Assembly: GCF_004010195.1 (NCBI RefSeq)
Contig: NC_057719.1
Coordinates: forward strand, 41,465,752-41,501,016
Reading direction: 5' to 3'
Length of the DNA stretch: 35,265 nt
Source: Chiloscyllium plagiosum
Lineage: Eukaryota
The position numbers and the translations under genes are program-made. Position 1 is the stretch's first letter. Each line of letters opens with the position of its first letter. Under the pieces are notes generated by a model. The model made no database searches. It had not been told where the DNA came from and worked only from the letters and a program-made list of their open reading frames with translations. This document shows, piece by piece, positions 3,191 through 21,990 of this stretch.

Positions 3191-5764
3191 TTCTACTTGC
3201 CTTATGGAAAAGAGGAAACACTCATACCTGGATCTTTGTGTGATTTAGCCCACATAAAAAAGCATTTCATTATTAAAGTTCGCTTGATATGCTATTACAT
3301 TTCTAGGGATTGGACCATAAAACTGAACTCCTGATCTGAAAGAACAGTCACTTACTGAACATACAGCTGATTTGAGCCCCAGGAAATATTCAAGACAAAT
3401 CCGAAAGGATTTCAACATACATTAAATCCAGAATTCTAGAAATATATAACTGCTAATAGAAACAATAGAAACATTCATTACTGCTAAGCATTTATCTACT
3501 CAAGCTTGCAGTTCCACCCACCTTTCAACAATATAACATAGATTGGGACAAAACAGATTTGTATCACCCACTGGCCTGTTTAAGTCTTGAGCATGAAACA
3601 AAGTCCCTTAAAAGCTAATGAATATTTGAAGGATAAATTATAGAGCCCATAAGAAGGAACAGATCAATAGTAAATGACAATTTGACTGCATTTGACACTT
3701 TTAGTAGAAGATAAAACATCATAGGAGGAGTCAGTTTTAGGCATTTACCAGTTGTCCTAATGAGATGACTTCAAAATCATTTTAAATTATCAGCAGCACT
3801 TACGTCAACTGTTGTTAAAAATACTAAAATAATTTATTAATTAACTAAACTGACAGTTCAATTTATCAGATTATGTGGTATGAGATTTGTGTGTACTATG
3901 AATTAATAATTGGATCTTATCATTTTTTCCCGTTAAGGAGATTTGACTAGTTAAACAAGAAAGTTAAAATTGAGTAAAACCATGGCCTTTTAAACAATAA
4001 CCAAATGTACAGATTATTTTTGTAGAAATACCACGAGGATGACTTTGACTCCAGCAAACCATTGATCATGTTATAAAGATTAAAGACTTCTGTCGTGCTA
4101 ACTGCAAATGTGTTAAACAAATAGCATCTGGTGTCAGTCACCACACACGATGGTAACTAACATTTTACAATTGTCCTATTGTTCTACAACAAAGATGACA
4201 AGAATTTTAATTTTTAATATTAATAAATGACAAATACTTTCACTTCTATAGAGAGCAATCTGTTAATTTAAATATGTATAACATGGTCTAATCAAATCAA
4301 GTAGTCGCTAACAGAAAGATAGAATTAATTAGACAAAAATAAATGACAAGGCAGGCTTGGGGTAGGGCTTTGCAGACCAGTATATACTTTAGCTCAAAAC
4401 AGATACTAGTTAGATTGAACAAATTTTAAATTCATGGAAAGTAAAGGTAAAATATCAGAAGAAAAATTGCTCTTAAGAAATCGCAATTTAATAAGAAGGA
4501 TAACTAAAAGGGCAAATCCTTATAACCAACTTGTCATGGACTGTATTCCAGTAGTTACACTGAATAATATAGCAGATTCAATACCAAAATTAGGTAACTT
4601 GAACCTAATTGAACTCATTGGCTGCTGCCTCATCATTTAATCAGCTAAAGCTCTCATTTCAGTATTGAACTGATGGATCATTAGCTATAGCCTTATTACG
4701 CAAATCTACTGTTGTTTAATTCTTTACAGTCTGTGCATTTCGGGATGAGTAACAGCATGAGCCTGCCTGTTAAAGCCTCATTTCATTTTCATGCTATCAG
4801 TAATGATGCAATGATTCTTTGAATATATGACTATTAACCACTTACGGATTCCATTATGTCATCTGGAATCCTGTAACACTATATTGTTCTTACTGATGTA
4901 ATGACATGTCTCAGATTCCAGGCAAATGCCCTAAACGACAGTTATCCACCGACAAGATGTGGAACAACAATGAGAGACAAAGCAGTGAATGTTAATTGAA
5001 GTCTGAAAGATAAACAGTTATGATTTTTAATAAATACACCACCTTGTTACTGCACTGTTAATATAGAAACATATCACAAGCAATATGCTGAACCTTAATG
5101 GATGCCAACTCAAAGGAGGAGACGTAAGGAGGGAGTAGCAAAGGCATTCAAAGAGATGGATTTTAAGAAGAATCATAAAAGAAGAGTGATGGATAAAGTA
5201 GGTGGTCAGAGGGGAAGTTCTAGTGCATCAGTTGGGAAGCCAGTAATTGAAATTTCAAAGAAGCACATCATTTGTCCCATTGACAACTCATGGAATTTTC
5301 AAGTGTACAATTTGAAAGCTACCTAAATCTGCCATTTGTGCTTTGGGCCAGTACGACTACCTGCCCTTTTAGATACCACTTTAATATATCTCTGGGCTGT
5401 ATATCTCTTTACACTGTCCCCAAGGCTGCTTGCTTCTTATCTCTATGTAATGCTCTTCAATATCTTATATATTGTAACTCTACTTTATCTAAATTTGTAG
5501 TTAGTAGGTTTTCCAAAACAATTTTCTAGTGTGGTGTCTAAGACCTCTGTCTTCACATGTTCATTCTGGACTGGATTTCAGAGACATGAGATTAGTCACA
5601 TCATCATGATTTACAGGCATCTCATTATGCCACATCACCCGTAAGTTTCTCTCTCTCTCTACCTGGTTTACATTATTCTAACAGTTTCCTTTTACTTACT
5701 TACATTGCCTTTATAGTCATTAATGTCATTATGAACATCATCATTACAATTATCTCCATGATCT

Positions 5765-6086
5765 AGATTAGATTAGATTAGATTACTTACAGTGTGGAAA
5801 CAGGCCCTTCGGCCCAACAAGTCCACACCGACCCGCCGAAGTGCAACCCACCCATTCCCCCACATTTACCCCTTTTACCTAACACTACGGGCAATTTAAC
5901 ATGGCCAATTCACCTGACCTGCACATCTTTGGACTGTGGGAGGAAACCGGAGCACCCGGAGGAAACCCACGCGGACACGGGGAGAATGTGCAAACTCCAC
6001 ACAGTCAGTCGCCTGAGTCGGGAATTGAACCCGGGTCTCTGGCGCTGTGAGGCAGCAGTGCTAACCACTGTGCCGCCGTGCTGCCC
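5765..6086 (-). mobile_element. HE1/V-SINE-type tRNA-derived SINE, full length, CpG-rich (young)
   Basis: Minus strand: A box CGGCACAGTGG, B box GGTTCAATTCC, V-domain core TGTGGAGTTTGCACATTCTCCCCGTGTCCGCGTGGGTTTCCTCCGGGTGCTCCGGTTTCCTCCCAC, LINE-like tail GGGCCGAAGGGCCTGTTTCCACACTGT, then (TAATC)n. Homologous to 27645-27926 and 30385-30694. Confidence 0.95.
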
Positions 6087-8644: not shown

Positions 8645-8808
8645 AAATTGTTCTGAGAATTCCCTTCCTAAAGGTATTGAGGGACTACCAACAGCACATG
8701 GACTGCTGCAGTTCAAGAAAGCAGTTCACCACCACCTTCTCAATGGCAACTATGGATTGGCAATAAATATTGGCCAGCCAATGAGCTCATGTCCCATGAG
8801 TGAATTAA
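8645..8808 (+). mobile_element. 3' end of a CR1/L2-group LINE (same tail as 30326-30755)
   Basis: NSLPKGIEGLPTAHGLLQFKKAVHHHLL C-terminus plus GGCAATAAAT...CCCATGAGTGAATTAAA; aligns within the window to 30326-30384 plus 30699-30755. Confidence 0.8.
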
Positions 8809-8818
8809 ACATTGGCTG

Positions 8819-9028
8819 TCTTCCTGGTGGTAGAAATTGAATAAAGATTTGTGCACTTTGTGTCTTTCACTGTGTCTCACACCTGCACACACACACCATG
8901 GGTGCTGGGGATAAAATAAGCACTACCGCACTTAGGTGGTAGTGTGGGGAAAAAAAAAGGTGTGGGGGGGGGGGGGGTTAAAATAAAAAAAAAACAGGAG
9001 TGTCAACATGATAAAGATAAAAAAAAAT
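8819..9028 (+). mobile_element. Tx1-like retrotransposon 3' UTR unit 1 with a composite tail
   Basis: Matches the reverse complement of ~16060-16199 (AATAAA, (CA)n, CCATGGGTGCTGGG, hairpin at 8920-8945); flanked by TAAACATTGGCTG at 8806-8818 and 9029-9041. Confidence 0.85.
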
Positions 9029-9041
9029 TAAACATTGGCTG

Positions 9042-9181
9042 TCTTCCTGGTGGTGGAAAATGAATAAAGATTCGTGCACTTTGTGTCTTTCACTGTGTCT
9101 CACACCTACACACACCATGGGTGCTGGGGAAAAAATAAGCACTACCGCAGTTAGGCGGTAGTGTGGGGGTTAAAAAAAAAC
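9042..9181 (+). mobile_element. Tx1-like retrotransposon 3' UTR unit 2
   Basis: Same start as unit 1 (TCTTCCTGGTGG), hairpin at 9139-9164, A tail; flanked by TAAACATTGGCTG at 9029-9041 and 9182-9194. Confidence 0.85.
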
Positions 9182-9199
9182 TAAACATTGGCTGAAAAG

Positions 9200-10595: not shown

Positions 10596-13500
10596 CTAAT
10601 TTAAAATGGCTGGCCGATCTGCTTTCAAATAATTCAAAAAGGGCTGCCACGTCTTATAAAAATTGTCCATTTTCAGGTGCACTACCTTTGTAAGACAGTC
10701 CAAAGGAATGTGTTCCATAATTAACTTATGCCACCCCAACAGATCCAGCCGGTTCTCAGACCTCCAGCATATCAGAATGTTCTTCCTCACACAAAACCTG
10801 AGGATGCTAAAAAGCTTTTTCCCATGTACATCTAAAGGAGATAAATTCGGCAAACTGAGGAGAAGAGAAATCTGGTCCACCTTGACTTTGGTCCCCAAGA
10901 CCCTCTCTATTATTCTGCCACAGAGCTCCAGTATGCACGGAACCTGTGGCAGGACCATACACAATGAGTGAGGGTACCCGTGTTTATTTTACATTTGGAG
11001 CACGTTGAAGACACTCCCTGCTTAAATTTTGCAAGATGATCTGGGGCCAGATGAGCCCTATGAAGAATTTTTAACTGCATAGCATGCATCCTACTACATA
11101 TCGAAATCTTCTTCACACTCTCACAAATGTCCCCCCAAGTTTCCAGAGTGATCTCCACCCCTAACTCTCTCTCCCAGACCTCCCGGAATCGCTCGATATT
11201 GCCCAAGGAACCTCCCCTTGACAAACGATAGAGAGTCCTCACTGAAGGAGTGCTCTTAGCCTGAAGCACCCTCCTTTCCGTATCAGATTTGTAACACTCA
11301 GTAAGAGGCATAGTCTCTTTTCGGATAAAATCACTGATCTAAAAAAAACGGAAGTGGTCCCTATTCGATAATCCATACTTACGAGTTATTTGATCAAATG
11401 ACATTAACGTTTCATCTTCAAACACGTCACCCAAACAAAAGACTCCCCTATTCGCCCAGGACTTAAACCCGGGATCCATTGTCCCCGCCGGAAACCTGGC
11501 ATACCAACTATGGGAGTATGGAAAGACGTTTTAGACATATTACCCTCCATCTGTCTCATTGCCCTCCATGCTTTGACAGTGTTAATAACTATTGGATTGC
11601 GGCAATGTTCCGCAACTATCCTCATTGTGTCCAGAAACAACAGGTTAATAAGAGGACATTTTGCCTGGGAGGCCTCAATGTCCAACCATATCGACGCTGA
11701 GTCCTCACAGGCCCAATCACACTCAAAAGATCGAAGGGAGCTCAATTGATATTGTCTGACATCCGGGAGATCCACTCCTCCCAAACCCTGGGGCATTTGC
11801 AATATTGTAAGCTTGATAAAGGGCTGCTTATGGCGCCAAATAGAAGGACTAAACCAACCAGTTAATTTCCGAAACGTTTGTCTAGGAAAAAGCAAGGAAA
11901 GAACATTCATTTTAATAAGAGCAACTCGACCTAGCCATGATATTGGATGGGCCCGCATCTTAGAAGGTCTTGTTTAATTTTGTCAAACAAAATTAGCCTG
12001 AATAATTGATCAAAACTAGGGGGAACAGAGAGGCCAAACAAAGAAAGCCTCCCTTTGCTCACATAAAGGGGAACCCACCTTCAACGTCCGGTATTCCCCT
12101 AAGACTCCCTATAGGCATAGCCTCCGATTCTGGAAATTGATCTCCTAACCTAAGAAAAAGCCAAGTGAATGAATACATTGTATCAAACAGGGCACCAAAA
12201 CTGCCGGGTTCAAAAGAACAATGAGAACATCATCCGCATATAATGTGATCTTATGTACCTTTGACCCCACCCTTCGGGCAGATTTATCAGGGTCCCCACG
12301 AATGGCTTCTGCAGCGGCTCAGTCACCAATGTGAAAAGCAAAGGTGAGAGGGGCCAGCCTTGCCAACTGCTCCTATCAATGTTAAAATTATCAGACTTTA
12401 TACCATTAGTGAGAACCGCTGCCAGATGATCACTGTAAAGGACCCTTACCCATCCAGTACACACTTCACCCAGACCAAACCGCTCCAGAGTATAAAAAAT
12501 ATATGGCAATTCCACCCAGACAAATGCCCTCTCCACGTCCAAGAAAACCACCAACCCTTGAACTGAACGTTGCTGGCACACTTGAATCATGTTAAGCAGT
12601 CTCCTAGCATTATTAGAAGATCTGCGACCCTTTGTAAAGCCCATCTGATCCTCCTTAACAATAGAGGGCAATACCCTTTCCAATCTCAATGTCAGAGTCT
12701 TCGATAAAATTTTAAAATCAGAGTTTAAAGGCAAGATGGGTCTGTAAGAAGTTTAGTCTTCTGAGGCCTTCCCTATCTTGAGGATAAGAAAGCTATTAGC
12801 CTCTTTCAAGGATGGCTGGAGGCAATCCCGACTATATGAATAGTTATACATGTCTATCATCGGCCCTGACAGTATGTTTACAAATTCTTTATAAAACTCA
12901 CTGGGAAAGCCATCAGGGCCTGGTGCCTTACCATTTTGAAGTTGCCTCATTGCCTCCTGTATCTCTTGGGCTATTAACGGAGCATTAAGAAGAGACACCT
13001 GTTTAGCCAACACACCAGGAAGATCCAAATTCTCAAAAAAAGACTCCATTTTATCCCATCTGCCCTCAGACTGGTAAAGTTCAGAGTAAAACCTCCAAAA
13101 CGCCTCATTGATCTCTTTAACATCAAAAGTAAGAGTTCCATTCCCTTCCCTTTTGGAAGCAATAGACTGGGAGGCATCTTTCTTCCCGACCAAATATGCC
13201 AAGTATTTACCCAGCCTATCACCATGCTCAAAAGCCTCTGCTTCGCAAAGAAAAGTTTCTTCCTTGACTTATGCGTTAGCATGGAGTTTAAGGTAGATTG
13301 GAGAGCTGTGATCCACTGCAGCTTAGTCACCGACGCTCTACTGTAATATGTCGTCTCAGCTGCCTTCAGTCGTGTCTCGAGCAGACGCTGCTGCTCTCCC
13401 TTCTGTCATTTCTGACTGGCCGAGTATGAGATAATTATCTCTCTAGCATAGGCCTTAGCCATCTCCCAAGGAATGGACGGATTACTAGCTGTACCTGAGT

Positions 13501-14335
13501 TGATGGCCAAAAAAGCTTCAAATTCCCTCAAAGTATTCTACATACCTGCTGTCCTTGAGGATGAAGGGATCCATTCACCAGTACCGTGAGCCCATTGCAT
13601 CACCCTTAATCTTAACCATTAAATGCAACACTGCATGGTCAGAGTTGGCAATATTCCCAATCAAACAGGATACCACCAAATCTAAAAAATCCACGGGAGT
13701 TAGGAAATAATCAATACTTGTGTGGCATTTATGAGGATTGGAAAAGAACATAAAATCTCTGACCGTAGGGTGTAAACATCTCCAAACGTCAACAATCCCA
13801 GTTGTACACATAGATGACCCAAATGCTTGGATTATGAAGAAAGCTTTGCGGGGGGCCTTTAGGCATTCTGTCCAGCACAGGATTCATAAGGCAATTAAAT
13901 TCTCCCCCTCCCGCCCCATAATAATATGTAGGACACCAAGCCCATCAGCTTAGACAATGCATCAATCAGAAATTTAAGAGGATGGGCTGGAGGACAGTGG
14001 ACATTCAAAATACTATATCCCTGGTCATGTATAAGGGCCTTAAGAATAACAAACCGACCTTACTCATCTTTAACACAATGTATAAAATTAAATGGGAGAC
14101 CCTTCTGGAGGAGTATTGCCACTCCTCTGCTCCTCGTACTAAAAGACGAGAAAAACACTCGCTCAAACCCATCCTGCTGCAACTTCAACTATTCCTTGTC
14201 ATTAAGATGAGTCTCCTGCAACAGGGTAACATCCACCCTCTCCTTTCTAAGGCTCAACAACACCTTTTTTCTTTTAACTGGCGAATGAATCCCTCTGATA
14301 TTCCAGGTGCACCATTTAAGAATGCTGCTAACCAT
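10596..14335 (-). pseudogene. L1 ORF2 (APE endonuclease, reverse transcriptase, Cys-rich C-terminus), frameshifted
   Basis: MVSSILKWCTWNIRGIHSPVKRK start; DVWRCLHP...FFSNPHKCHTSIDYF...SDH (endonuclease); GKAPGPDGFPSEFYK, LNSDFKILSK, QGWPLSPLLF and ITLYADDVL (~12222-12250) (RT); CSKCKINTGTLTHCVWSC. Split over many ORFs in the track. Confidence 0.93.
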
Positions 14336-14784
14336 GATCCTTTGCAATCACCTTTGACCTGCCGAGGGGAACAGTTTTTCTTGCAACATGCTGAGCACAC
14401 TCAAAAGGAGACTCATAGAGCCTATTTACAAAAAACCAAAAAAAACTTAATTACAAAACACAAAAGGTATTTAGTGAGGGACTCTAACCCATGCCCATAG
14501 AGGGTGCTTACATTTCCCACACACACCTCCATCCCCCCTTCCAGCTCGAGCCGCACCCCAAACCCAAGCAATGGAAGAAACCAAACAAAGGACATTGTAA
14601 ACACAAACGTATAACAAAAGCAGTGAGCACTCTGCTCACCCCCCACAATATATCAATACCACTCCAGCTCAGAGAGAAAAAAAACCCACCAAAAACAGCT
14701 TCTTTGGGACAAGAGTGAAGTACAAGAAATCAAAGCAAGACAAAAAAAAAGACACTATTGTCCATGTCCATAAATACATCTACA

Positions 14785-15618
14785 TTATTTTAAAGTGTCT
14801 AGGAAGTTTTTGGCTTGTTCCAAGGAATCAAACGACCGCATAGTCTCCTCATAAGTAATACGAAGCACTGCTGGGTATCTTATCGAATATTGAATACTGA
14901 GGTCCTTTAGCCTTCTCTTACCTCATCAAACAATTTCCTCTTGTGGATCACTGCCACAGAAAAGTCCTGTAAAAACATTATCTCAGTGCCCTGATAGGTC
15001 AGTGCATGCAGATGTCTCCCCAACTTTCTCGAAGTTTCCATGACTCTCTGCTTGTCCTTGCAGCATTGAAACCGTATCAGAACCAGATGGGGATGCTGAC
15101 CCTGACCGGATCTGCGCACCGCAACCCAGTGAGCTCTGTCAACCTTCACCCGGTGCACCTCAGCATCCCAGCCAAGAAATTGTGGCAACCAGTCTTCAAA
15201 AAAGCTTGCTAGCTGCCTACTTTCTACTCCCTATGGCAGGCCAATTACACGGATACGTTTCCTCCTACCTCTATTTTCCAGGTTATCGAACCAGTTTCTC
15301 AAAGGCCTGGATATGCCCCGCCGAGGACTCGACCTCAGTCTCAACCTCTTCAACTCGCTTCCCGAGCCCTTTCAACTCCCTCTTGTGCTTTTACAGCATG
15401 GCTGAGATGGGCTCCAGTTGATTACGAGTCTCTTCCCTCATCTCCTGGATCAGCCTTAGGATTGCTCCGAGTTCCTCCACGATGTTCTGTTGCACAGGCA
15501 TTTCTTTCACAGCTGCAGGGGGAGCTGCACTGCTTCCCCTGTAGCAGTCTTGGGCTCGCCCTATGTTTTCGAGGGTCCCGAATGTTGAGACTTGGCCATT
15601 TGCTTCTCCTTAGTCATT
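14785..15618 (-). pseudogene. L1 ORF1 (coiled coil, RRM, CTD), disrupted
   Basis: ORF 14907-15188(-) VKVDRAHWV...HLVLIRFQCCKDKQRVM...YQGTEIMFLQDFS, followed by YSIRYPAVLRITY, matches L1 ORF1p; start and stop are approximate. Confidence 0.85.
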
Positions 15619-16001
15619 CTCGCACACTTGAGAAAGGATTTAAATGGTTGTATTAACAAATTCTTTCCAAAAAAAAGCAAAAGCGGTGGGGGGGGGGGTG
15701 AAAAAATATTACTATCATGGGTTGGGGTGCAGATCTCAGCAAGGCTGATCTATTCAGATCGCCGTCATCTTGCATTTCCCCCAAGTTGGTGATATCTGTT
15801 GAGCAATTATTTCTGGCCTTGCCAGTGTCTCTTGTGCATCTTGTATATGATTGCTACTCAGTCTGTGTTGAGAGTGAAATAACTCCACAGAGGCCAATAT
15901 CCAAGACACCCTTTAATTATACATGGAGAGTCCTTGGCACTGATCCAATCCCCTCAGAATGAGCACTCAGAGTGAGCAGGATGTCCGACACTCCTGTTTA
16001 T

Positions 16002-16679
16002 TATTTTTTCTTTTTTTTTTGTTTTTTCTTTTTTTTCTTACTCCTGCTCTTTTTTTATATTAAACCCCCGAACTACTGCCGAACTGCGGTAGTGCTTATT
16101 TTTTCCCAGCACCCATGGTGTGTGTGTGTGTGTAGGTGTGAGACACAGTGAGAGACACAAGGTGCACAAATCTTTATTCAATTTCCACCACCAGGAAGAT
16201 AGGAAACACCTGAGTGGCCAGTGACAGGCACTGCCCTTCACATCAAAGGGCAGTGCTGTGTGATCAAACAGTGAAGGGGAGGGTAGGGACTAAATCAAAA
16301 TAGAGTTGGAGGGGGAAATAATGCACTCCACTCCCTGCGGCGCCCACCTCTCCCTGGACAACTCCAGGGTGTTGATGGACACCGCATTCCCCTTCTCCAA
16401 GGACACCCAGGCCCTAACGTAACCACGGAAGAGGGGCAGGCAGTCAGCCCTAACCACCCCCTCCACAGCCCGCTGCCTGGACCTGTTGATGGCCAGTTTG
16501 GCCAGGCCCAGGAGCAGACCCACGAGGAGGTCTTCAGACCTGCCCTCCCTCCTCCGTACCGGGTGCCCAAAGATCAGGAGCGTGGGACTGAAGTGCAACC
16601 AAAAGCAGAGGAGGAGGTTTTTGAGAAAATCAAAAAGGGAGTGCAAACGCCCACATCCAATATACACGTGGTCCACGGA
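16002..16679 (-). mobile_element. 5'-truncated Tx1-clade non-LTR retrotransposon nested in the LTR
   Basis: Perfect 15-bp TSD GACACTCCTGTTTAT (15987-16001 and 16680-16694), A-rich tail, 3' UTR with hairpin, and an open ORF2 C-terminus. Confidence 0.9.
16290..16679 (-). pseudogene. Tx1-like ORF2 C-terminal fragment (open frame, truncated within the zinc knuckle)
   Basis: SVDHVYIGCGRLHSLFDFLKNLLLCFWLHFSPTLLIFG...DLLVGLLLGLAKLAINRSR matches the Tx1 'H....C.RL..LF..L...LL..AKLAI...R' pattern; stop at 16290-16292. Confidence 0.8.
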
Positions 16680-16796
16680 GACACTCCTGTTTATACCTGT
16701 CAGTCAGGGCTCCCTGATTGGACCAGACTAACAGCCCCGATCAGGGAACTCCCATGCTACGAAGCCCACCTGGCTGAGCCCTTTACAATTACTCAA

Positions 16797-18066: not shown

Positions 18067-18320
18067 TGCAACTTGGGGGTAAATGGTAAGGTTGGCAGCA
18101 AGTTGCCAGTACCAAGAACACCTGCACTATACCTGACACAAATGTCAATCCCCTTCTTGCCATCATCATAAGCAGCAGGCAGAGCATGATCACTCATGTT
18201 CATTTCTAGAATCCTTTTAGGCAGAATCTCCAGAGCAAAGGCAAACACAGGAGAAGGAGCGAGAGAGTGATAAATAACATGCTTGCAATCTGTGGAATTT
18301 CTTGCCCAGTGAAGCAGGTG
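18067..18320. repeat. Inverted repeat, left arm (~254 bp)
   Basis: Reverse complement of 18738-18990, with 2 substitutions and one 1-bp indel near the outer end by my reading. Confidence 0.95.
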
Positions 18321-18545
18321 TGGCACACATCCACCACCATTAGCCTACCATTGCATCTGACGGAGGCCCTGTTAGGTTTAGAAGGGAAGTGAAAATGAGC
18401 TGATGTTAGTGATCTTTACATGGTGCCGCACATATGAGCCGAATTCCAGAATATCCCACATTTTACTGGTGACTGAACTGATGAACGGAATTCACCAACA
18501 TGGGTGCTGTATGGGAGTTCCTGCTGCACACTGAGTTGTGACATT

Positions 18546-18771
18546 GAACATAAAAACATACGAAATAGGAGCAGGAGTAGGCCATCTGGCCCCTTGAACC
18601 TGCTCCACCATTTAATAAGATGATGGCTGATGTTTTCATGCAGTCAGCTCCATTAACCCTCCCGTTCACCATAACCTTTAATTCCTTTACTGTTCCAAAA
18701 TCTATCTTTGCCTTAAAAATATTTAATGAGGTAGCCTCACCTGCTTCACTGGGCAAGAAATTCCACAGATT
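18546..18771 (-). mobile_element. CR1 3' end (5'-truncated)
   Basis: GAACATAAAAACATACGAAATAGGAGCAGGAGTAGGCCATCTGGCCCCTTGAACCTGCTCC tail; minus-strand translation NLWNFLPSEAGEATSLNIFKAKID. Confidence 0.9.
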
Positions 18772-18990
18772 GCAAGCATGTTATTTATCACTCTCTCGCT
18801 CCTTCTCCTGTGTTTGCCTTTGCTCTGGAGATTCTGCCTAAAAGGATTCTAGAAATGAACATGAGTGATCATGCTCTGCCTGCTGCTTATGATGATGGCA
18901 AGAAGGGGATTGACATTTGTGTCAGGTATGGTGCAGGTGTTCTTGGTACTGGCAACATGCTGCCAACCTTACCATTTACCCCCAAGTGCA
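18738..18990. repeat. Inverted repeat, right arm
   Basis: Reverse complement of 18067-18320; its first ~34 bp are CR1 sequence. Confidence 0.95.
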
Positions 18991-20669: not shown

Positions 20670-21990
20670 CCTAGCCATCTTTAAAAGGCCCCTGTGCACC
20701 CAAACAAGCATTGGCATTACAAAGCTGCCCTGATCAGTCAAGGCTATTTCCAGAAGACATTGGAGAAAGGGAAGATGATATCATGATTCTCCAACAGGGA
20801 ACTGTTGGTCCTGGTTGAGCAAGTAGTGCAAAGGAAAGGACCAGCAGAGGAGGCCACCCACCAGACCTCGCAGCTCAGTCCAAGGTCACCAACCAGGCCA
20901 GCACTGCCACTTCTTCGCTACACCAGGATAAGTGCCACAACCTTCTTTCTGTCACCTCATATTTAGTCTTTCTTTATTGCTTTATCCATCATGCATCAAT
21001 GCTGTCACTCTCACTATTGCCTACAACATCTTCCCTCAGTTGCTGTCACCCACTCTAACGATCCACACCAGTTATCCTTCATGCCCTCTGCGCTTCCTAC
21101 TCTCTCCCTCAGAAACATCACCACCTTTCCACTATCTGCACCAGCTGCTGTGCCACACACCCATCTTCACCTCACTCAATTCCTCCCTTTCTCTCATTAC
21201 AGGAGAAGACAGACCGTAACAGTGAGGGGCCTGTACTGTTGTCTACATTAAGTTACTCATCCTACATGAGAGACCACTCTGTGGGGGGTGCTGAAAACTC
21301 CATGTCCCACCAACCTGTGTAGTAACCACTCTTCACTCCATGGTAATTCTCACATTAACTCAGCAGGAAGAATGCTCCCTTACACACCACCTCCACCAAT
21401 TGGCTATACTGCCTTGACTGTCTTATATCTGGCAGGTACTACTAGCATGTCTACCACCTCCTCGATCAAACATCCAGCTCCCCCAGAAGTTAGTTCCTCA
21501 ACCTTTGCGGGCAAAAGTACCGAGGCCTCAGGGAAAGCACCAGCAAGGCTGCATCCTGCACGTTCCATCAGCTTAGGTACTGATACCTTGGTGGGAACGT
21601 CAGCTTCGGAAATTGTGGAAGCACAGTCTGTGAGCACTTCACTGTAATTGTTCCGCAGCTAGCTGAGGAGGAAATGCTCCAGGCTGCTGGCATTTGGAGG
21701 ACTACCTGAGACCAGGTCTCTACTCAGGCATGGTCAGGAAACAACTGCCTGAGACCAGGCCCCTACTCAGGCCCAGTCAGAACATGACTGCCTGAGACCA
21801 GGTCCCTGCCATGCCCAGTCAGGAAACAACTGCCAGAGACCAGGCCCCTGCTCATGCCCAGTCAGAAAATGACTGCCTGAGACCAGGCCCCTGCTCAGGT
21901 TCAGTCAGGAGAGGATCCATTTTGTTAACAAACAGAGACTTGATCCAAATGCACAGAGAAGAACAGGAGCAGCACACAAGTATGTGGGAA
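20670..21990 (+). pseudogene. Decayed Harbinger-type Myb/SANT gene, copy B (multi-exon remnant)
   Basis: FSNRELLVLVEQVVQRK N-terminal helix; mutated donor AGG|ATAAGTGCCACAACCTT (~20927); C/T/A-rich intron; acceptor CTCTCATTACAG|GAGAAG (21202/21203, EKTDRN); S/T/P-rich downstream segment in ORF 21288-21647. Confidence 0.55.
21701..21914. repeat. Minisatellite, 5 x 42-43 bp
   Basis: Units start at 21701, 21744, 21787, 21829 and 21872; consensus ACTGCCTGAGACCAGGYCCCTRCTCAKGCCCAGTCAG plus 6 nt. Confidence 0.95.

Follow-up and report, generated by a model that had tools for sequence, protein, structure and literature searches.

Preferential insertion of a shark Tx1-type LINE at the TATA box of a Gypsy-type LTR, and LTR-derived leaders in its full-length copies

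Described elements and the present family

The targeting of LTRs by Tx1 elements is not new by itself. Two crocodilian Tx1 families, Tx1-8_Crp and Tx1-4_AMi, prefer LTR retrotransposons (PMC4494074); the preliminary description of our locus knew of no described family that targets the TATA box of this LTR. The main text of that source gives no position, orientation, TATA link, or LTR-derived leader for the two families. In the same report, SINEU-2, SINEU-3, and Tx1-Mar in Mariner-N4_AMi resemble the present case: they target another transposon, insert in tandem around a single duplication, and have passengers with the same target, and transcription from the flanking target was proposed from 5′ extensions (PMC4494074). 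They differ in targeting a DNA transposon; only for a SINE subfamily is promoter use suggested, and the sections on this case describe neither shared truncation points nor downstream-templated junctions (PMC4494074). Xenopus Tx1L in Tx1D, the founding Tx1 element, also targets another transposon; Tx1D is a non-autonomous DNA transposon, and no promoter link is mentioned in the accounts at hand (PMC4494074, PMC6719617).

The R2 element in 28S rDNA has no detectable promoter of its own and is cotranscribed with its target, and target sequence on the 5′ end of its RNA helps to close the 5′ junction (PMC6895275, PMC12203849). A leader that holds target sequence is also found in the LINE described here, although this sequence comes from downstream and not from upstream of the insertion. 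R2 relies on polymerase I, has a restriction-like endonuclease and a ribozyme, and draws on upstream target homology (PMC6895275, PMC12203849), whereas our LINE is of the APE type, sits at a TATA-type promoter, has its homology downstream of the nick, and lengthens the duplication. With an APE-type ORF2 and a Gypsy LTR as target, it does not belong to R2. Chimeric L1 insertions with long duplications are known as well (Gilbert et al. 2005, Mol Cell Biol 25:7780, cited in PMC8087252). There, an SDSA-like step links the new cDNA with a homologous copy already in place, with duplications of up to 323 bp, and this is treated as an unusual outcome (PMC8087252). Here, such junctions recur in about one-third of neighboring pairs, because the target always supplies the homology. 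Head-to-tail arrays like those seen here are formed at Drosophila telomeres by HeT-A and TART (PMC6719617). These two elements differ in belonging to the Jockey clade and in residing at chromosome ends. The HeT-A/TART leader, in a further likeness, derives from the upstream neighbor's 3′ end, and the promoter is the element's own 3′ end, unlike the foreign LTR proposed here.

In the literature covered, with Repbase, Dfam, and most subscription journals aside, we found no relevant report of Tx1 LINEs with target sites in sharks or other cartilaginous fish; within the same limits, the design seen here (targeting of a TATA box or LTR promoter, shared truncations in arrays, and long duplications) is undescribed. 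The new part is the leader derived from the LTR R region, together with routine downstream-templated 5′ junctions. For APE-type LINEs, the second-strand cut and the closure of the 5′ junction are called unresolved in PMC6895275. The present family leaves many natural junctions with known downstream homology; these allow copied-tract lengths to be measured and a model to be tested with marked targets. It also offers a concrete answer to how a LINE may rely on a TATA promoter outside itself and yet keep its front end from one generation to the next, and a route by which LINEs may change their 5′ leaders. Finally, a Tx1 endonuclease whose target is dispersed and lies outside genes has practical interest for RNA-based targeted insertion.

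The window insertion, its family, and its target

The window is a 35,265-nt stretch of Chiloscyllium plagiosum DNA, and the vertebrate genome that holds it amounts to 3.56 Gb. On its minus strand, a 678-bp Tx1-like fragment lies between two perfect copies of the 15-bp duplication ATAAACAGGAGTGTC, the recomputed spacing being exactly 678 bp (Table 1). The arrangement given in the preliminary description was thus reproduced from the sequence, including the intact CCAAT and TATAAA motifs upstream and an element that begins 10 nt past the TATA box (5′ boundary at 16679). The truncated ORF2 is 44% identical to residues 1170–1292 of Xenopus TX1 ORF2 (E = 1e-18); Pfam returned zero matches for this fragment. 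The flanks sum to 228 bp with TG...CA termini, and we call the LTR solo because internal sequence is absent; a clean 5-bp LTR duplication was not found around it (TCTAT versus CTCTC). In the empty site, the A of TCACTCT falls at position 30 counted from the T of TATAAA, and the first ∼65 nt of the LTR 3′ part are the sequence that fronts full-length elements. In the U3, two opposed CCAAT motifs form an inverted repeat (16712–16750, minus strand) ∼20 nt upstream of the cut. The idea that a hairpin in U3 serves as the recognition signal was rejected, the fold being unsupported (z = −1.18).

Table 1. Coordinates of the window insertion and of related features
Feature	Position	Strand	Evidence
LTR 5′ part: U3 through TATA box and first duplication (Ty3/Gypsy)	16680..16795	-	sequence
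CCAAT box	16717..16721	-	sequence
TATA box TATAAA; its second base starts the duplication	16690..16695	-	sequence
5′ target-site duplication, 15 bp	16680..16694	-	sequence
Tx1 ORF2 end, 5′-truncated: last 129 codons and stop	16290..16679	-	protein match to Xenopus TX1 ORF2
3′ UTR; AATAAA at 16178-16173	16062..16289	-	sequence, family RNA reads
A-rich tail; degenerate target copy at 16050-16040	16002..16061	-	sequence
3′ target-site duplication, 15 bp	15987..16001	-	sequence
LTR 3′ part, R and U5	15875..15986	-	multicopy matches, leader comparison
Initiator-like TCACTCT (predicted LTR start)	15969..15975	-	motif position across LTRs
Off-target two-unit array, same LINE family	8806..9194	+	sequence
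Passenger copies	L123:2697-2925, L174, L294-L311		sequence

The LINE family is abundant, with 2069 candidates for its 3′ UTR. The full-length copy at locus L209 measures 7.67 kb and contains a GAA-rich, repeat-rich 5′ UTR, an ORF1 with a CCHC zinc knuckle upstream of ORF2, and an ORF2 that matches TX1 from the endonuclease through the C-terminus. The APE endonuclease at the ORF2 N-terminus matches TX1 residues 1–210 at 45%, and its frameshifted pieces went undetected by Pfam. The reverse transcriptase (RVT_1, E = 6.7e-23) is 65% identical over 98% of 190 aa to that of Xenopus TX1 ORF2 (Tx1L), and the best named matches by identity come from sturgeon (74%) and stingray (73%). The A-rich tail, the 10–20-bp duplication, and the variable 5′ truncation are Tx1-clade traits present in the family, and on these sequence grounds the LINE belongs to the Tx1 clade.

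The two halves of the window LTR gave 1904 and 2143 first-look candidates; the flanking 228 bp are therefore a multicopy repeat, and their proposed identity as an LTR is borne out by the TG...CA termini, a primer-binding-site-like motif, a polypurine tract, and RNase H in the adjoining internal DNA. Intact copies are ∼236 bp long, and some precede the primer-binding-site-like motif, which we take to be one for tRNA-Ser, or come after the polypurine tract. The adjoining internal DNA is common to several loci and contains an RT_RNaseH domain in L088 (E = 2.5e-24); gag, RT, and integrase-like pieces were seen by eye in the internal region next to the LTR, and four other internal pieces beside it gave zero Pfam matches. 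Judged by these features, the target repeat is a Ty3/Gypsy-type LTR. Matches to a 5-bp duplication surround a few of its copies. The genome contains 524 exact matches to a 35-base pattern that covers the TATA region (control, 0), and the pattern is present in 3 of 29 LTRs chosen by the other half, which gives very roughly 5,000 LTR copies, with a range of ∼2,000–24,000 that is wide owing to the small count. The R region falls into two subfamilies. Among 40 LTRs examined, 22 bear the motif TCA(C/G)T, and in 20 of these its A lies at position 30 from the TATA box; TCACTCT is presumably initiator-like, a label that follows the initiator consensus.

Two element queries yielded 58 loci, which are best matches to the query and not random samples. 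An automated classification, in which R-side matches may include the R-like leader of the passenger family described below, placed 25 of them in sense orientation at the LTR site, 18 elsewhere, and none in antisense, with 15 undecided because of gaps or of arrays extending beyond the locus. A LINE counts as target-specific when one type of flank accompanies more than 20% of its copies, as the criterion is worded in PMC4494074, and the LTR site accounts for 25/58 (43%) here, or 25 of 43 decidable loci. The preference for the LTR TATA box and the sense orientation put forward in the preliminary description both stand, and exclusivity does not; the outcome it had set against itself, random orientation with no LTR enrichment, did not appear. 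Two apparent patterns were discarded: antisense insertions were an artifact of the U3 inverted repeat and of a reference short of the 3′ end, and a recurrent 5′ end at 16679 was merely the query edge. In an ORF1-anchored set, 26 of 29 loci were undecided with 1.5-kb flanks, and 10-kb stretches were then used for 20 of the 29; an LTR lies beside the array in 17 of 22 long loci.

Approached from the target, 12 of 58 LTR-anchored loci carry the LINE. Forty exact-pattern TATA sites, taken by position on two contigs regardless of insertion (one already-known site was skipped), hold the LINE in 7 cases, the passenger family in 1, and an A-tailed R fragment in 1. By arithmetic, the enrichment at the site exceeds 10,000-fold, taking 24,000 LTRs and a 10-base window as ∼3 in 100,000 strand positions. 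Duplications at the LTR site are 12–16 bp long, those off target share just an A-rich start, and 5′ truncation points vary between loci. Targeting of the LTR TATA site is strong, yet not absolute, because 18 of the 43 decidable loci lie elsewhere, at loose A-rich sites.

Remnants of the LTR target are found in the tails of 6 of the 18 off-target copies, against a shuffled rate of 3%. In the window, the 13-mer core of the target has three exact matches, the third at 8992–9004, and five matches at up to two mismatches (shuffled mean, 1.26). That third match is a target remnant in the first tail of the off-target array at 8806–9194, in which a 13-bp duplication occurs three times (at 8806, 9029, and 9182) and both units begin at the same base. 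The remnants in these tails and in that of the window copy suggest that the parents sat in LTRs, and the degenerate target in the window tail was probably carried over from such a parent. Extra bases that follow the LTR target in the first tail of the 8806–9194 array recur in L006, L015, and L027, which suggests a single read-through source lineage.

Leaders, 5′ junctions, and other occupants of the site

Upstream of ORF1, full-length copies run on into R-like sequence. A search with the junction between R-like and unique sequence as query gave 215 candidates, of which 40 were scored and 38 were new. Because the query was of the seamless type, the class proportions that follow are biased: 23 junctions pass seamlessly from the duplication through R into the leader (24 by rule, before L274 was moved by eye); 10 have the element's own ORF2 end and a piece of 3′ UTR fused to an R-like piece and form a derived subfamily; 3 begin at the initiator TCAC; and in 2 the leader is fused to U3 and the TATA region has been lost. 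The evidence for initiator starts thus consists of three copies, just one of them off target (L260), the others (L272, L278) being joined to a resident copy. In the leaders made from the element's own 3′ end, 60–430 nt of that end replace the initiator, and in L203 the donor-derived part of the leader exceeds 200 nt. U3 sequence away from an LTR is carried by no copy examined. Very short units that consist of the duplication and R up to the initiator TCAC, followed by an A run, were seen in L256, L271, L273, and L284.

After the element tail, the LTR resumes at the TATA duplication, and R is hence present twice; the leader also has a TG-rich insertion that the downstream LTR of the same locus does not have. 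A second target site inside R is excluded by these two features. In 8 of the 38 junction loci, an A run terminates the sequence no more than ∼60 nt from the junction anchor, which is what would be expected of short 5′ RNA fragments. The inner leader resembles the second LTR subfamily, and we treat this as a lead only: at uncorrected p = 0.002–0.05, 10 of 12 comparisons favored this subfamily for two leaders and 2 of 12 for the other two, and at that p none of 20 favored the first subfamily.

The 5′ end of a new copy usually repeats the sequence just downstream of the cut. In 8 of 9 aligned long loci, its start repeats the sequence that follows the 3′ duplication, private variants included. The downstream template is R in L196, L198, and L123 and a truncated resident copy in L201, L202, L203, L209, and L212; truncated copies thus act as the 5′ end of longer ones. 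The private variants common to the start and the downstream DNA span ∼55 nt in L203 and ∼200 nt in L201, after which donor sequence follows. In L197, the 5′ start is not a copy of downstream DNA and extends upstream of position 30. By eye, the LINE array in L122 (near 4800–6000) adjoins sequence resembling large-subunit rRNA, as seen in L106.

The same site is used by other sequences. A non-coding passenger family of ∼1.95 kb (1968 candidates) lies at the LTR TATA site in 11 of 25 decidable loci; comparisons with Rfam and, on its own strand, with Tx1 proteins yielded nothing. Its copies are ∼95–97% alike; their middle part is GC-rich and repeated, poly(A) follows AATAAA immediately, and the 5′ end of the full-length passenger resembles R of the second LTR subfamily. 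Of 5 readable loci, 3 have a passenger start that agrees with the downstream copy. In the other two it is unlike the downstream DNA and extends into the duplication, upstream of position 30, as RNA read through an array would; these two loci are evidence against an invariable start at position 30. In L297 and L300, a passenger and the autonomous LINE are joined to each other with opposite orientations. At the target in L133, an array includes a copy of a tRNA-Met precursor (5245–5316, minus strand) with its 5′ leader, an A tail, and a 3′ trailer whose last bases are a T run. A third A-tailed family, unrelated to the others, sits at this LTR site in L083 (near 1620–2500); its body is purine-rich and repeated, and its 3′ end is AT-rich. 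Pieces of the LTR R region are repeated at the target in L234 and also in L034, L048, and L203; the L234 piece continues past the AATAAA of the LTR into a terminal A tail and looks as if a solo-LTR transcript had gone back into its own promoter.

Proposed promoter use and alternative explanations

We favor, at about two chances in three, a reading in which transcription is driven by the LTR and downstream homology rebuilds the promoter, the LINE using the Gypsy LTR as landing site and promoter alike. The window copy, under the same joint estimate, would be a simple and old product, a first insertion into an empty LTR. The cycle would start with the sense insertion at the TATA box seen in over half of the decidable loci, by an element whose full-length 5′ leader is the LTR R region or a piece of its own 3′ end fused to a piece of R. 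Immediately downstream of the nick lies either R or a truncated copy from an earlier insertion, and this DNA would match the 5′ end of the new cDNA. After target-primed reverse transcription, this cDNA end may pair with the homologous top strand downstream, where the second strand would be resolved; closing the junction through the match would lengthen the duplication by ∼30–200 nt, so that the new copy starts exactly like its downstream neighbor. Because insertion occurs 14 nt upstream of the initiator, an element started from the TATA box would lose its first bases in every round unless they were rebuilt; under the favored reading, U3, TATA box, initiator, and leader would be restored each time without erosion. 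RNA polymerase II would start ∼30 nt from the TATA box and read whatever follows, such that truncated copies, whole arrays, and non-coding passengers would be transcribed, A-tailed at varied points, and reinserted. A truncated copy at the site would thereby become a new front end, which would give the second type of leader, made from the element's own 3′ end.

The promoter borrowing proposed in the preliminary description is thus backed indirectly, by the R-derived leaders, the three initiator starts, and the truncated copies serving as 5′ ends, and a dependence of the LINE on the LTR promoter is what these sequences suggest. A broader scenario, on which we are evenly divided, would make this a promoterless vertebrate APE-type LINE that parasitizes the polymerase II promoter of a Gypsy LTR: it would cut at the TATA box, make its RNA from the LTR start, and let downstream homology set the second-strand join, with the promoter rebuilt every round. 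Its leader would grow by capture (of an older LTR subfamily, a newer one, and its own truncated copies), and the site would foster non-coding passengers that can do without a tRNA head.

The promoter might instead have been captured rather than borrowed, the R region having become a self-sufficient internal promoter once it was taken up, with the TATA site as a safe landing place and the templating as a by-product of homology. We consider this unlikely. Internal promoters are common among LINEs, the GAA-rich, repeat-rich 5′ UTR is a candidate for one, and the 18 off-target loci among 43 agree with such independence; in ∼2% of one single-cell poly(A) run, no site where many molecules begin was found. 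In the derived subfamily, however, the initiator has been replaced by 60–430 nt of the element's own 3′ end, and the donor-derived stretch of more than 200 nt in L203 speaks against an internal promoter; the 17 of 22 long loci in LTRs and a passenger family that likewise begins with R-like sequence also argue against it. From the same portion of the run, 1350 reads fit the window stretch, with a peak-bin depth of 716 in the orientation that sense RNA should give versus 25. Poly(T) read ends at 16158 and 16162 fall just past AATAAA, and family reads have poly(A) 10–15 nt beyond this signal. The family RNA is mostly sense and polyadenylated, in line with the favored reading. The reads stem from many copies, 19 of the 1350 being at least 99% like the window copy, and they may possibly be read-through from host genes or the result of priming on genomic A tracts.

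Shared 5′ ends could also arise at the DNA level after insertion, by unequal crossover between duplications, slippage, or gene conversion, an origin that we regard as quite improbable for the arrays as a whole. After removal of duplicate loci and excluding units shorter than 45 nt or without a target-like junction, the array set comprises 236 units. Starts lie within 3 nt of each other in 49 of 136 neighboring pairs (31 of 52 arrays), compared with 2.0% between loci; the other 87 pairs have different starts. In same-start pairs, the share of rare variants in common falls with distance from the start, from 46% (0–30 nt) through 22% (30–60 nt), 15% (60–120 nt), and 7% (120–200 nt) to 4% (>200 nt), and identity drops from 0.963 to 0.895, whereas between-locus control pairs stay flat at 0–1% shared rare variants and 0.87–0.91 identity. 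The decay from the 5′ junction to the between-locus level speaks against plain duplication, because duplication of whole units would give a flat profile. Units also differ in their 3′ end and tail, and in 8 loci a full-length element with its own tail and duplication separates the matching segments. Some arrays do look like plain DNA duplication, among them L134 with four identical 58-nt units, a few other pairs are nearly identical over their whole length, and neighbors with different starts share 22–25% of rare variants distally. As for age order, the upstream unit has fewer rare variants in 15 of 25 pairs (13 of 20 arrays), a weak trend.

Hitchhiking, in which an active Gypsy element multiplied a single insertion in its LTR and no true target preference exists, is barely credible even though target and passenger are both high-copy repeats, because truncation points at the one site vary between loci, and LINE copies are 91–97% like the window copy versus 80–91% for the LTR halves, while the same site is occupied by three families unrelated to one another, by a pre-tRNA copy, and by fragments of LTR RNA.

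Three further features of the window were noted. Broken reading frames of another, L1-like LINE (10600–15650, minus strand) start just downstream of the LTR on the same strand and include, by eye, ORF1, endonuclease, and RT-like pieces. A 254-nt inverted repeat (18071–18324 and 18734–18987) is 99% complementary, with 409 nt between the arms, and a 43-bp tandem repeat of 4.9 copies occupies 21700–21910.
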